A stretch of 4,783 bases of DNA, taken from NCBI RefSeq assembly GCF_003334815.1, contig NZ_QOWO01000075.1; one strand, written 5' to 3'. Shown here one piece after another: positions 1,284 through 4,783 of the stretch. The position numbers and the translations under genes are program-made. Source of the DNA: Escherichia coli. Lineage in GTDB: Bacteria > Pseudomonadota > Gammaproteobacteria > Enterobacterales > Enterobacteriaceae. The notes beneath the pieces are model-generated. The model was not told the DNA's origin and did not search any database. It saw only the letters and a list, made by a program, of their open reading frames with translations. The stretch's first letter is position 1, and every line of letters begins with the position of its first letter.

Positions 1284-1290
1284 TACAGGG

Positions 1291-1310
1291 CAGGCGGTGG
1301 AGGCCGCCTG
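1291..1310 (+). other. GC-rich hairpin just downstream of the 63-aa ORF stop (7-bp stem CAGGCGG/CCGCCTG, 6-nt loop)
   Basis: Inverted repeat 1291-1297 / 1304-1310 seen directly; begins 8 nt after the stop at 1281-1283. Confidence 0.45.
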
Positions 1311-1448
1311 TCAGCCCGCGCGAAAACCCCTGGCAGGCTGGCGCCTGCCGGAAGGGATGCGGGCCACGCTGGCGCGTCGCCCGTTACCCTTCCCGTTTGT
1401 GATGTGTCCGGAATGTTTTTTCCTGATGTTATGTTTCTGTGGTTACTG

Positions 1449-1477
1449 TTCTTCTTCTTCTTCTTCCTCTTCTTTCC
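1449..1477. repeat. Polypyrimidine simple-repeat tract containing (TTC)6 at 1449-1466
   Basis: Direct reading: ttcttcttcttcttcttc followed by ctcttctttcc; pyrimidine-only on the + strand for 29 nt. Confidence 0.9.
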
Positions 1478-1837
1478 GTTCCTCTCCTGTTTATGCCTTT
1501 TCCGGGCGTCCCCCTGGCGGGGCGGGCTGTCGTGAACGGAGCCAGCGGAGCTGTCTCCGCCCTGGCGGGCTTCCATCCCTGACGCAAAACCCCGGGTTTG
1601 CAGCGACCGGAACGGTCGCGCCACCCTTGTCGCGCCGTGGCCTGCGCTCCTGGCATCCCGGCAAAAAGACGCCGGGATGTAAGGCGCAACGCCGTTTCGC
1701 GCACGCGCTCTCCGTCGTTGCGGCGGGTCCCTGCTCATTGCCTGCCGGGTGCCACACACCCGTATGAGTCCCTGTCGCCGGGGGCTGATACAGCCACAAC
1801 CTGCCGCACTGACTGTCCAGGGTAAATGAACAGCCCA

Positions 1838-1873
1838 CAAAATTTTTTACCCAGAACCCGGTAAAAAATTTTG
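1838..1873. other. Perfect 14-bp AT-rich inverted repeat (CAAAATTTTTTACC / GGTAAAAAATTTTG) with 8-nt spacer
   Basis: Arms 1838-1851 and 1860-1873 are exact reverse complements. Flanked by a further imperfect pairing, 1813-1821 with 1882-1890 (8 of 9), suggesting a longer imperfect hairpin centred near 1855. Confidence 0.8.
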
Positions 1874-2252
1874 CGTTCTGCCCAGGACAGGTGCGTCAGG
1901 CCGTGGCAGTGATGCCCCTTGCGGCGAAGGTTCTCAAACGGGTGAAGTTCATACCACAGGGAATACAGCAGCAGGTTCCCGCGAAACGTCAAAACCGCGG
2001 CTCCCGAAACTCAACGGGTGATGTTCTTTAAAAATCAGGATTTATTTCAGGCTCCGGCAATACGCATTTATGTGTTCTGTCAGCATCCTGCTGACAGGTA
2101 ATGAGAACGCAGGAACAGAAGGAGGAATACACCGGAAAACGTCAGATGCAGATATGAAAAAAGCAGGTCAGGGACCTGCTTAATCCACGCCGAAGAGACT
2201 GTGCAACCAGTCTTTAAGGCACTGTTACCAACCTGTCATAAGGTATCCATTT

Positions 2253-2483
2253 ATGACTGTAAGCATTGTTTCACCTTCCGCAGCGGCTGTAAAGCCCCGT
2301 CGTCATACCCGTTTCAGACGCGAAGACATCCCCGCGCCGGAAATTGACCCCGTGCTGAAAGCCTTCGGGCGACACATTGCCCGGAGTTTTCGCCGGGGGC
2401 GTGGTGTACACATCCCCGCCATGAAAAACACGGCTTTCGGGCAGGTGCTCCGCACACTCGAACTGAAACGCGCTTTTAACTGA
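2253..2483 (+). CDS. Small arginine-rich hypothetical protein, 76 aa (possibly DUF905/UPF0401-like; unverified)
   Basis: ATG 2253 with weak SD (AAGG 2240-2243, 9-nt spacer); first ORF downstream of the structured element; co-oriented. Many R/K residues (KPRRHTRFRRED, RSFRRGRG). No motif recognised with certainty. Confidence 0.55.
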   Translation: MTVSIVSPSAAAVKPRRHTRFRREDIPAPEIDPVLKAFGRHIARSFRRGRGVHIPAMKNTAFGQVLRTLELKRAFN

Positions 2484-2491
2484 TGAGGTGA

Positions 2492-2511
2492 GCCGCCCCG
2501 CGAGGGGCGGC
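2492..2511 (+). other. Intercistronic GC-rich hairpin (8-bp stem GCCGCCCC/GGGGCGGC, GCGA tetraloop)
   Basis: Perfect inverted repeat 2492-2499 / 2504-2511 between the stop at 2481-2483 and the RBS AGGAG 2523-2527 of the next gene. Uses the same octamer pair as the 636-654 hairpin, in swapped arm order. Confidence 0.6.
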
Positions 2512-2534
2512 AACAGACAGAAGGAGAACATTTT

Positions 2535-3896
2535 ATGACATTATCAGCAATCACCATGACCGCCCCGGAAGCCGCCAGCCCGGTGCAGATGTACCGCGCG
2601 ACCTACTCACCGGATGATAACAAACTGCGCCTGTATGCCGCGTCACGTCTTGACCCGGAGACGTATAAAAAAGTGCATGATGCCGGTTTTCGCTGGGCAC
2701 CAAAACAGGCGCTGTTTGTCGCGCCAGCCTGGACACCGGGCCGGGAAGACGTGCTCCTCTCACTTGCCGGAGAGATTGAGGATGAAGACAGCACGCTCGC
2801 TGAACGTCAGGAAGCACGGGCGGAGCGGTTTACCGGATACAGCGGAAAGCGGGCCAGTGAATCCGCACAGGCACTTGATGAAGTGGAAAGACTGGCCGCG
2901 ATGATCCCGCCCGGTCAGCCCATTCTTGTGGGGCATCACAGCGAACGCCGCGCCCGTCGTGATGCGCAGCGTATTGAAAACGGCATGAAACGTGCCGTGA
3001 TGCTCTTTGAACGTGCGGAATACTGGGAAGAACGGGCGCGGTCGGCACTGCTTCACGCGAAGTATAAAGAACGCCCGGACGTTCGCTGGCGTCGTATCAA
3101 AAAAATCGAAGCGGATTTGCGCAAGGCTGAAAAGACCATCGCACAGTCGCAGAAATATCTGACGATGTGGCGGGCTGAATCGCTGGATCTGAATATGGCA
3201 AAACTCATCAGCAGTCATGACCATATCAGCGCCTGTTTCCCGCTGGATACGTATCCGCGCCCGGCAGAAAAAAGCCAGTATGAAGGGAGCCGGTCGTTAT
3301 GGTCGGCCCTGGATGATGACATCATCACCACGGAGCAGGCCCGCGAAATTGCGATCCGCTGTCATGAACGGCAGATTCAGCATCAGCAACGCTGGGTTAA
3401 CCACTATCAGAACCGCCTGATCTATGAGCGTGCCATGCTGGACGAAAGCGGCGGCGTGGTTACCCGGACACAGGATTTTGAGCCGGGCGGACAGGTTTTC
3501 AGCCGGGGCGAGTGGCTGACCATCATCCGCGTGAACAAAAGCAACGGGGCGGTGAGTTCAGTCACAACGCCGAATTACAGTTTTCTCGGGTACAGCGGCA
3601 CGATGAAAGTGACGCCCGATCGCATCACGGACTACAAAGCACCATCGGCAGAAGAGGCTGCCGTCGCCAGTCAGGCCGCGAAGCGTCCGCCGGTAGTCAA
3701 CTATCCGGGGGAAGGTTTCCGGGAAATGACAAAGGCACAGTGGGCCGCCCTGCCCCGGGACTGTAAGGCCGTGCGCAGTGTGGCAGAGACAGAAGACCAC
3801 GGGGCATACCGCTACCGCCGCACAATGGATAATAATTTCCGCCTGGTGAGTGTGTATATTACCGACATGAAAATCACGGAAATCCCACAGAAATAA
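2535..3896 (+). CDS. Protein of unknown function, 453 aa (possibly DUF3560-type leading-region protein; unverified)
   Basis: Long ORF with RBS AGGAG at 2523-2527 and 7-nt spacer to ATG 2535. Central highly charged, probably helical segment (ERQEARAERF ... RRARRDAQRIENGMKRAVMLFERAEYWEERARSALLHAKYKERPDVRWRRIKKIEADLRKAEKTIAQSQKYL). No catalytic motif recognised by eye. Confidence 0.9.
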   Translation: MTLSAITMTAPEAASPVQMYRATYSPDDNKLRLYAASRLDPETYKKVHDAGFRWAPKQALFVAPAWTPGREDVLLSLAGEIEDEDSTLAERQEARAERFTGYSGKRASESAQALDEVERLAAMIPPGQPILVGHHSERRARRDAQRIENGMKRAVMLFERAEYWEERARSALLHAKYKERPDVRWRRIKKIEADLRKAEKTIAQSQKYLTMWRAESLDLNMAKLISSHDHISACFPLDTYPRPAEKSQYEGSRSLWSALDDDIITTEQAREIAIRCHERQIQHQQRWVNHYQNRLIYERAMLDESGGVVTRTQDFEPGGQVFSRGEWLTIIRVNKSNGAVSSVTTPNYSFLGYSGTMKVTPDRITDYKAPSAEEAAVASQAAKRPPVVNYPGEGFREMTKAQWAALPRDCKAVRSVAETEDHGAYRYRRTMDNNFRLVSVYITDMKITEIPQK

Positions 3897-3901
3897 GGTA
3901 T

Positions 3902-3927
3902 ATCCCCCCGGGAAATCCCCGGGGGAT
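3902..3927 (+). other. Intercistronic hairpin containing two CCCGGG palindromes
   Basis: ATCCCCCCGGGAAATCCCCGGGGGAT: outer 7-bp stem 3902-3908 / 3921-3927, a C-C mismatch, inner 3-bp stem 3910-3912 / 3917-3919, loop AAAT. Lies between the stop at 3894-3896 and the RBS GGAG 3931-3934. Confidence 0.5.
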
Positions 3928-3942
3928 GACGGAGATAATGAC

Positions 3943-4506
3943 ATGCACAGTCAGTTAAGAGAACGTATCCGGCTGCTGCGCGCAAGGCTGGATAACGCCG
4001 CACCGGTTGCTGAAATCCGGGCTGAATCTCAGCTTTTTGTGACACCTGCCCCGGTCTGTGATCGCCTGGTGACGCTGGCGGAAATCAGCAATCGTGATCA
4101 CATTCTGGAACCCTCTGCCGGCACCGGGGCCATACTGCGGGCGATTCGGGATACCGCGCCGGAGGCCATGTGTGATGCGGTGGAGAGCAACAGCGGGCTG
4201 GTCCGGTATCTGCGGGAAAATTTTAACGGTGTCAGGGTACAGTGTGGCGACTTCATGGAATGGCAGCCGGTGCAGTATTACAGCCGGATTATCATGAATC
4301 CGCCGTTCAGCCACGGGCAGGATATCCGGCATATCCTGCGGGCCTTTTCCCTGCTGCGTCCGGGTGGCGTTCTGGTCGCCGTCTGTCTGAACGGGCCACG
4401 CCAGCAGGAGAAGCTGTTACCGTTTTCTGACATCCGCGAGGAGCTGCCGCGCGGCACGTTTGCTTATACCCATGTTCCGACGATGATTATTCGTCTGCGC
4501 GCCTGA
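3943..4506 (+). CDS. Orphan SAM-dependent methyltransferase, 187 aa (amino-methyltransferase fold; N6-adenine/N4-cytosine DNA MTase-like, no recognisable target-recognition domain)
   Basis: RBS GGAG 3931-3934 with 8-nt spacer. Motif I (AdoMet binding) ILEPSAGTGAIL near residue 55; motif IV NPPF near residue 119 (IIMNPPFSHGQD). Motif order I then IV and the small size indicate a minimal MTase core. No adjacent restriction endonuclease gene in the window. Confidence 0.85.
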   Translation: MHSQLRERIRLLRARLDNAAPVAEIRAESQLFVTPAPVCDRLVTLAEISNRDHILEPSAGTGAILRAIRDTAPEAMCDAVESNSGLVRYLRENFNGVRVQCGDFMEWQPVQYYSRIIMNPPFSHGQDIRHILRAFSLLRPGGVLVAVCLNGPRQQEKLLPFSDIREELPRGTFAYTHVPTMIIRLRA

Positions 4507-4577
4507 TGACACAGGCAGGCGGGAGGATAAATGCCCGTCTGCCCGTGCCGGGAAAAAGACCGCGCGCCGGTGGCGCT

Positions 4578-4609
4578 GAAAGGGGCCGCGCTGACGCGCC
4601 GCCCCTTTC
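4578..4609 (+). other. GC-rich hairpin downstream of the MTase (13-bp stem with one mismatch, 6-nt loop), contains GCCGCCCC
   Basis: GAAAGGGGCCGCG (4578-4590), loop CTGACG, CGCCGCCCCTTTC (4597-4609). Followed only by a short TTTC, so at best a weak terminator. Confidence 0.5.
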
Positions 4610-4654
4610 ATTGCGCGGACGTTCTGCTGTGGACTTCTGTCTTTTCAGAACGGT

Positions 4655-4783
4655 CATTTGTCTGTTACTGATGATGTTGTTGTTCCTGCTACTGCTACTG
4701 CTACTGTTCTTCTTTTTTCTGCTGCTCTGATTACTGTCTGTTTTGTTGTTCTCCTGCTTATGCCTTTTCCGGGCGTCCCCCTG
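4655..4783 (+). promoter_or_regulatory. Start of a second copy of the Frpo/ssi-like element (truncated by window end)
   Basis: 4751-4783 (ctcctgcttatgccttttccgggcgtccccctg) matches 1484-1516 at 32 of 33 positions. Upstream there are shared ttactgttcttctt and ctgatgtt blocks plus a different simple-repeat tract. Confidence 0.6.
4670..4750. repeat. Compound simple-repeat tract: (GAT)2(GTT)3 at 4670-4684, (CTGCTA)3 at 4686-4703, T-rich pyrimidine run
   Basis: Direct reading of the sequence; differs in unit and copy number from the tract at 1449-1477 in copy 1. Confidence 0.9.

Follow-up and report, generated by a model that had tools for sequence, protein, structure and literature searches.

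A diverged AS-pc01-type antisense RNA predicted opposite the start of ydaB in an IncF plasmid leading region

FinP, the antisense RNA of traJ, is a constitutive, cis-encoded small RNA (sRNA) built of stem-loops and a terminator and directed against the leader and ribosome binding site (RBS) of its target, and a transient burst occurs in new transconjugants. Similarly, CopA acting on CopT in the tap-repA leader of R1, and Inc RNA acting on repY-repZ of IncI/B plasmids, recognize a structured leader via complementary stem-loops. Ribosome-loading or Shine-Dalgarno (SD)-like sites far upstream of a structured start are known from tisB, whose standby site is blocked by IstR-1, and from cryIIIA (STAB-SD). 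The described RNA closest to the present locus is AS-pc01 (Rfam RF02875, "antisense to pHK01_035"), the sRNA first described on the IncFII plasmid pHK01; RNA-seq of pHK01 by Jiang et al. in 2017 reportedly underlies the Rfam entry. In F-like plasmids, transfer of the T-strand begins at oriT with the 5' end, so that the leading region goes in first, and the genes of this region decide the establishment of conjugative resistance plasmids in new hosts. Single-stranded-DNA promoters of the Frpo/ssi type have been described (PMC9849209, PMC12672017); leading-region genes are expressed from single-stranded DNA and are off after conversion (PMC9849209; bioRxiv 2026.01.09.698686). The current literature ascribes this transient expression entirely to promoters that switch themselves off, and no mention of antisense RNA in leading-region control was found in the leading-region literature examined.

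The window analyzed here, the whole stretch of 4,783 nt, is found in E. coli IncF conjugative plasmids at 96-97% identity, and thousands more matches at 90-95% were obtained by megablast. The window is an IncF plasmid leading region. Its gene order, taken from annotated relatives, is as follows.

201-626: klcA-like antirestriction gene
673-1092: DUF1380 gene
between the DUF1380 gene and the non-coding stretch: 63-aa ORF
1284-2023, plus strand: non-coding stretch of about 750 nt, predicted Frpo-type repeat
2253..2483, plus strand: ydaB, 76 aa
2535-3896: DUF3560 gene
3943-4506: SAM methyltransferase gene
from near 4510: second non-coding, Frpo-like repeat
3' of the second non-coding repeat: ssb, psiB and psiA

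The non-coding stretch 1284-2023, called an "element" in a preliminary description of this DNA, matches the Frpo2 region, which precedes ssb on the F plasmid, with 89% identity in an alignment of 775 positions, and the F Frpo1 region with 82% identity; its Frpo homology ends sharply at 2023. As single-stranded DNA, the minus strand 2045..1680 folds into a single long hairpin (-98.5 kcal/mol, z -9). Given this homology and the long hairpin in the T-strand, the element is a predicted Frpo/ssi-type single-stranded-DNA promoter repeat. Its -35 and -10 hexamers and start site could not be placed by eye, and we infer that the start lies upstream of 2023. In the F plasmid (L033, 9838-10644; the counterpart in the window is 1284-4783), ssb comes directly after the 63-aa ORF and a single Frpo repeat. 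Classical F lacks the ydaB-DUF3560-methyltransferase cassette, which two Frpo-like repeats flank in the window, and this absence is consistent with gain or loss of the cassette through recombination between the repeats.

The 76-aa YdaB protein is highly basic and, from its sequence, has no hydrophobic segment. Its homologues, named YdaB or DUF4496 in some sources, are confined to Enterobacterales plasmids. The Pfam match is weak (PF14908, E 1.9e-4), and no family was found in NCBIfam or PHROGs. The AF2 model consists of two helices (pLDDT 77), for which a Foldseek search of the PDB gave nothing below E 1. The features predicted at the ydaB start and in its leader are listed below.

2157..2258, minus strand: cis-antisense sRNA of about 100 nt, AS-pc01 family (Rfam match, position, covariation, fold)
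2293→2265, minus strand: predicted sigma-70 promoter of the sRNA, extended -10 (promoter scan, conservation, synonymous constraint)
2235..2257, minus strand: sRNA stem-loop 1 (Rfam model, folding, hairpin scan)
2189..2220, minus strand: sRNA stem-loop 2 (Rfam model, covariation, folding)
2161..2181, minus strand: sRNA stem-loop 3, predicted intrinsic terminator (terminator scan, helix 3 pairing)
2021..2157, plus strand: remnant of a 75-aa gene, orf75 (alignment to intact orf75)
2077..2097, no strand assigned: perfect 9-bp hairpin on the orf75 deletion junction
2119..2125, plus strand: AAGGAGG, SD-like, without a start codon (lineage comparison)
2155..2157, plus strand: conserved TGA, stop of the upstream ORF or its remnant (lineage comparison)

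The window holds five perfect hairpins of at least 9 bp, compared with a mean of 0.17 over 300 dinucleotide shuffles. Recomputation reproduced, with the coordinates given in the preliminary description, the hairpins at 2077-2097 (CTGTCAGCA/TGCTGACAG) and 2161-2181 (AAGCAGGTC/GACCTGCTT), each with 9 bp and a 3-nt loop. The AGACTG/CAGTCT hairpin also exists, but its real position is 2196-2213, one nucleotide from the reported 2197-2214. Overlooked before was a fourth hairpin, with 7 bp and a 9-nt loop, at 2235-2257; it contains the SD and start codon of ydaB. Folding as RNA, which had been proposed as a check, gave a stable structure for each hairpin (z -4 to -5). As for the A6 said to precede 2161-2181, an A-run does span 2157-2162, but no more than four of its As lie outside the 9-bp stem; the other two belong to the A:T pairs that form the stem base.

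The identity of three of these hairpins is provided by Rfam. The RF02875 model aligns over its full length (1-99) to the minus strand at 2258..2158 with 68.7 bits and E 5.4e-11. The score falls short of the gathering cutoff (79 bits), an operational threshold and not a biological feature. For comparison, pEG356, a pHK01-like and near-identical IncFII plasmid, was used in place of pHK01 (HM355591). There, the canonical AS-pc01 (109.6 bits) occupies 20373..20276 on the minus strand and spans position 20368, where the orthologous 76-aa gene starts, just as the window match overlaps the ydaB start at 2253. pHK01_035 is accordingly taken as the ydaB ortholog from this pHK01-like record. Because the placement over the start of the 76-aa gene is the same, the predicted window sRNA is a diverged positional ortholog of pHK01 AS-pc01, sub-threshold and previously unannotated. 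The two share a three-stem-loop layout and the same terminator sequence; they differ in the sequence of loop 1, the SD of ydaB being AAGGT in the window and not AAGGAG, and in mismatches at 3 of the 13 consensus pairs of stem-loop 2 in the window allele. A plus-strand AS-pc01 match at 2078-2184 (26.8 bits, E 0.12) was rejected as a mirror or shape artefact that pairs the 2077-2097 hairpin with the terminator hairpin. AS-pc01 has been detected by RT-PCR in STEC vesicles (PMC12370729), and one primer of that study is identical to window 2166-2186.

The window sRNA folds at -38.2 kcal/mol (z -4.0; z -5 to -9 in other alleles) and is complementary to the ydaB leader, the SD and the first two codons. 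The mirror of stem-loop 1 on the mRNA holds the SD (AAGG, 2240-2243) and the AUG (2253-2255) of ydaB, and the hairpin at 2196-2213 is the tip of stem-loop 2. Stem-loop 3 was recognized by the terminator scan as nine pairs followed by TTTTC on the minus strand. It has a 9-bp stem with 5 GC pairs and a U-tract at 2160→2157, and the T-run reaches six contiguous Ts when the two basal pairs are counted. The proposal that 2161-2181 resembles a minus-strand intrinsic terminator is thus borne out at the level of prediction. The role suggested for it, a shield of the element against stray antisense transcription, is replaced by another, since it would end a dedicated minus-strand sRNA of about 100 nt.

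A promoter of matching orientation is predicted inside ydaB codons 5-14. It consists of a -35 TTTACA (2293→2288), a 17-nt spacer, a TGA extension and a -10 AACAAT (2270→2265); with 9 of 12 consensus hexamer positions plus the TG, it falls in the extended -10 class. The predicted start at about 2258 coincides with the first position of the RF02875 model. The -35 is invariant in all 21 loci of the close group, and the -10 varies there at its third base only; in the distant group, the sequences read TGGACA-17-TGT-AACAAT. The coding sequence bears a corresponding trace. At third positions, the entropy of ydaB codons 1-14 is 0.41 bits and that of codons 15-76 is 0.89 bits, and the fraction of identical codons is 0.885 and 0.632, respectively. 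The 14-codon stretch with the lowest entropy, codons 4-17 (0.36 bits), is the one that contains the -10, the TG and the -35. The putative promoter imposes a synonymous-site constraint on ydaB.

The breadth of conservation was assessed with ydaB loci gathered independently of the RNA, from plasmid matches over identity classes and from a one-genome-per-species scan with a YdaB alignment, giving 28 distinct loci with 44-99% protein identity. A covariance model of our own (R1), built from 20 sequences, scores 93.1 bits on the window sRNA and detects a minus-strand sRNA over the start of ydaB in every one of the 28 loci. These include eight distant loci outside the training set, from Pantoea, Mixta, Erwinia, Cedecea and Intestinirhabdus (E 9e-9 to 1.4e-5), in which the Rfam model gives no match at E <= 0.1. 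Rfam at E <= 0.1 matches 13 ydaB loci from other species, and only 3 of them reach the cutoff while the other 10 lie below it. Pairing is maintained in 89.3% of alignment cells, compared with at most 46% when the partners are slid. Double changes occur at 18 of 28 pairs, and none of 500 shuffles reached the observed covariation score, which was computed on an alignment that had been fitted to model R1. Double changes affect all seven pairs of helix 1; helix 3 is 98.7% paired, with compensatory changes at apical pairs. Independent folds also give three hairpins (z -4 to -9). Consequently, the layout of three stem-loops with a final terminator that characterizes AS-pc01 is backed by covariation.

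The strand on which these helices act may be read from wobble pairs. G·U cells outnumber A·C cells by 20 to 1 in helix 1 and by 7 to 0 in helix 3, whereas helix 2 has 9 G·U and 27 A·C cells. This asymmetry favors a minus-strand RNA for helices 1 and 3 and the sense strand for helix 2, a pattern consistent with two RNAs, sense and antisense, that are both structured. Since A·C cells prevail in helix 2, its mirror structure on the mRNA may also matter.

Compared with FinP, the window sRNA likewise combines stem-loops with a terminator and shows complementarity to a plasmid gene at its leader and RBS, and both FinP and AS-pc01 are detected on pEG356. The sequences are unrelated, however, and FinP has two stem-loops, needs FinO and targets a transfer activator. 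CopA and Inc RNA resemble the window sRNA as cis-antisense RNAs of plasmids that act on a structured leader. On the other hand, they block a leader peptide translationally coupled to rep, whereas the window sRNA directly covers the RBS of its target, and the mini-ORF in the ydaB leader is not conserved in length. The tisB standby site and the cryIIIA STAB-SD are possible analogues of the AAGGAGG only; the latter lies about 127 nt from the ydaB AUG, outside the cover of the antisense RNA.

The remainder of the leader has a different origin. In Citrobacter and Klebsiella IncF plasmids, an intact orf75 with its own SD and ATG directly follows the Frpo repeat; it is intact and annotated at two loci (L008, L009) and open at four more (L015, L017, L022, L024). 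Its stop is a TGA that lies within the A-tract belonging to the sRNA terminator. In the alignment, window 2021-2157 covers a dozen codons from the N-terminal end of orf75 and some 23 from its C-terminal end, among them those for the N-terminal QAxAxRxY and for the C-terminal SGW...QKE...stop; it has lost the SD and ATG as well as the central part of the gene. In pRS218, the resulting remnant is annotated as a 45-codon ORF, and in the window allele a further 1-nt deletion inside 2077-2097 breaks even this ORF. Judged by this alignment, 2021-2157, including the hairpin 2077-2097, is what remains of a deleted 75-aa gene, and this remnant would explain the odd look of the ydaB leader. The hairpin sits on the deletion junction and is absent in lineages with an intact orf75. 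It was read by eye in other E. coli-type alleles as 8-9 bp with G·U pairs, and its perfect 9-bp form is specific to the lineage of the window; it is likely a by-product and relic. The three hairpins first seen as parts of one leader thus separate, as 2161-2181 and 2196-2213 belong to the predicted sRNA and 2077-2097 to a lineage-specific pseudogene remnant. A comparison ruled out orf75 as a YdaB paralogue, and no family was found for orf75 or for an unrelated 114-aa ORF (Pfam and PHROGs for the latter), which is the gene before ydaB in L020, L021 and L025-L032. This 114-aa ORF ends ...K-E-x...Q-K-stop at the same AAGGAGG...TGA module. The shared end implies that the alternative upstream genes are joined to this module immediately 5' of the AAGGAGG.

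The AAGGAGG at 2119-2125, which had been pointed out as a strong SD with no properly spaced start codon, is the sole AGGAGG within the window. It is not a failed gene start; it derives from in-frame AAG GAG G (K-E codons) near the 3' end of orf75; flagging it was nevertheless worthwhile in view of its conservation at the nucleotide level. Of 28 distinct lineages, 26 have the exact motif, the exceptions being L007 (GAGGAGG) and L023 (TGGAGG). It is placed 29, 20 or 17 nt before the conserved TGA and is kept regardless of the upstream sequence, be it orf75, the 114-aa ORF or a remnant, at least four of which arose by independent deletions. The two codons invariably read AAG GAG, without a single AAA or GAA, although the next 17-29 nt diverge freely, and this difference argues for selection on the nucleotides. 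In the close group, no start codon lies 4-12 nt past the motif. In the distant group, an in-frame ATG or GTG mostly follows only 2 nt after it, too close for use, and folding places the motif in the loop of a small hairpin. No conserved pairing partner emerged, as the partners in minimum free energy folds differ between lineages; CACCTTCC in ydaB codons 7-9 was rejected because it is not conserved in the distant group. A frameshift signal of the dnaX/prfB type (SD-like motif, A AAA AAG, hairpin) was likewise rejected, since the heptamer is located past the stop codon and the spacing does not fit. The antisense-RNA model does not explain the conservation of the AAGGAGG, and a ribosome-tethering, standby or stabilizing site is a guess.

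For the two items outside the sRNA, it is quite possible, if on balance doubtful, that the hairpin 2077-2097 and the AAGGAGG are simply functionless relics of orf75, kept by recency or hitch-hiking. Both lie inside the remnant, the perfect 9-bp hairpin is restricted to one lineage, and the motif corresponds to orf75 codons. The AAGGAGG, however, persists in lineages with the 114-aa ORF and with the independent remnants, and its codons are invariant amid diverging sequence, which points to nucleotide selection instead. A wider reading, and an improbable one, was that the mRNA has a structured 5' leader in which the hairpins, the orphan SD and a mini-ORF exert attenuation or translational control. 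The sense strand does fold into mirror hairpins of similar stability, helix 2 has more cells with G·U in the sense than in the antisense strand, and the ydaB AUG lies in a 7-8-bp mRNA stem (-6.8 kcal/mol). In addition, the ATG at 2154, like the AAGGAGG, is conserved; it overlaps the TGA at 2155-2157 (ATGA), which itself overlaps the A-tract encoding the U-tail of the sRNA, and it opens the nine-codon ORF that had been described (stop TAA, 2181-2183). The ATG at 2146 also opens a short ORF, although this reads M-Q-I-stop rather than two codons. Against such a leader, an attenuator terminator is missing, as none of the plus-strand hairpins has a U-run behind it, and the mini-ORF from 2154 ranges from 5 to at least 29 codons across lineages, which leaves no leader ORF of conserved length and lends no support to a functional leader peptide. 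Helices 1 and 3 favor the minus strand, and the hairpin 2077-2097 is missing where orf75 is intact. The two remaining hairpins are better accounted for by the sRNA, given the conserved minus-strand promoter, the terminator and the Rfam match.

Two further readings concern what the hairpins and YdaB might be. The location in a leading region beside a Frpo-type hairpin would suit DNA-level signals on the transferred strand, such as priming (ssi) sites or a replication roadblock, and single-stranded-DNA promoter hairpins are reported to stall complementary-strand synthesis (bioRxiv 2026.01.09.698686). This is very improbable here: helices 1 and 3 accept G·U pairs (36 such cells when all helices are counted), although these are mismatches in DNA; the hairpins are short, 6-9 bp against a Frpo stem of about 150 bp; and a promoter and a terminator are predicted to bound a 100-nt unit homologous to an Rfam-curated sRNA family. 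That YdaB is the toxin of a type I toxin-antitoxin pair with the antisense RNA as antitoxin is scarcely credible, even though a cis-antisense RNA covers the RBS of a small ORF and a hok/sok locus resides in the same leading region. Type I toxins are small hydrophobic membrane proteins, whereas YdaB is basic, lacks a hydrophobic segment in its sequence and is modeled by AF2 as two helices, predicted to be amphipathic. NCBIfam gives it no family, and nothing marks it as a toxin. At one locus (L007, described below), a frameshifted ydaB and an sRNA without its U-tract point to joint decay.

Based on the results presented above, the explanation that probably covers the locus best is a minus-strand, AS-pc01-type antisense RNA that would silence ydaB after entry, while the other features lie in the orf75 remnant. 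The sRNA would be transcribed from the extended -10 sigma-70 promoter inside ydaB and end at the stem-loop 3 terminator. It would then pair with the fully complementary ydaB leader, and occlusion of the RBS or cleavage of the duplex would most likely turn YdaB off, a repression step proposed by analogy with FinP/traJ and CopA/repA. Control of the 76-aa gene, which had been suggested from the hairpins, would thus be post-transcriptional, but not through a sense-strand attenuator or a structured leader.

The direction of transfer gives this scheme a timing. On the map of an annotated relative, oriT lies between the SLT gene and traM; together with the polarity of the T-strand, this placement makes the T-strand the minus strand of the window and the template of ydaB. 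The Frpo-type promoter upstream of ydaB would fire on this incoming single strand. The plus strand is absent from the incoming DNA, so the antisense RNA should be made only after conversion to double strand. A naive recipient would consequently see an unopposed burst of ydaB mRNA on entry, followed by silencing. Conversion to double strand is itself reported to silence Frpo promoters (bioRxiv 2026.01.09.698686), and for this reason the need for an antisense brake is unproven.

A more elaborate proposal is that the ydaB leader is a switch responding to the strand state of the DNA, through the antisense RNA, with a functional AAGGAGG as a second component; taken as a whole, we regard it as unlikely. 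The antisense RNA would sense the establishment of the plasmid and close the expression window opened by the single-stranded-DNA promoter, and it would also silence ydaB of an incoming plasmid if the recipient already has a relative. The AAGGAGG would serve as a ribosome-tethering, standby or mRNA-stabilizing site for the expression of ydaB from transcripts made on single-stranded DNA.

The core finding is ordinary in kind, a diverged and unannotated member of a known sRNA family. What is new here is the breadth of the family, the logic of the strand state and a conserved SD-like motif without an explanation. The sRNA, already known although few studies have dealt with it, is placed right over a gene predicted to be Frpo-driven. 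Its conservation extends through the entire YdaB family, far past the reach of the Rfam cutoff, and it would not be made from the incoming strand. Taken together, these three points suggest a simple, testable second layer of control.

Several individual loci deserve mention. In the Salmonella Kentucky plasmid CP082621 (L007, 1229-1400), the terminator lacks its U-tract and one stem pair, and ydaB, which is unannotated, is frameshifted by a 1-nt deletion; gene and antisense RNA appear to be decaying together. Raoultella ornithinolytica (NZ_BCYR01000022.1) has two ydaB copies about 2.8 kb apart (L020 and L022), each with its own antisense RNA of a different sequence type, and Entomohabitans and Mixta also have two copies each, on separate contigs. 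The ydaB of Pantoea sp. BAV 3049 (L026) is on a chromosome-sized contig of 5.17 Mb and may be part of an integrated element. Near-identical E. coli-type loci (L011 and L012) occur in metagenome-assembled genomes labeled Oscillibacter or Oscillospiraceae (Firmicutes), most likely labels that reflect binning contamination.

Elsewhere in the window, perfect GC-rich hairpins of 7-8 bp without a U-run are found at 636-654, 1291-1310, 2492-2511 and 3905-3925, about 10 nt past the stop codons of the klcA-like gene, the 63-aa ORF, ydaB and the DUF3560 gene, with the next SD soon after; they could be intercistronic mRNA stabilizers or single-stranded-DNA structures. Pyrimidine-rich trinucleotide tracts occur at 1449-1475 (TTC/CTT) and 4665-4751 (CTG/CTA/GTT), each directly left of the conserved core of its Frpo-like repeat; the core TTATGCCTTTTCCGGGCGTCCCCCTG is common to both copies, and the tracts differ. 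Finally, a perfect 9-bp hairpin, GCAGGATATCCGGCATATCCTGC, lies at 4317-4339 within the methyltransferase coding region.
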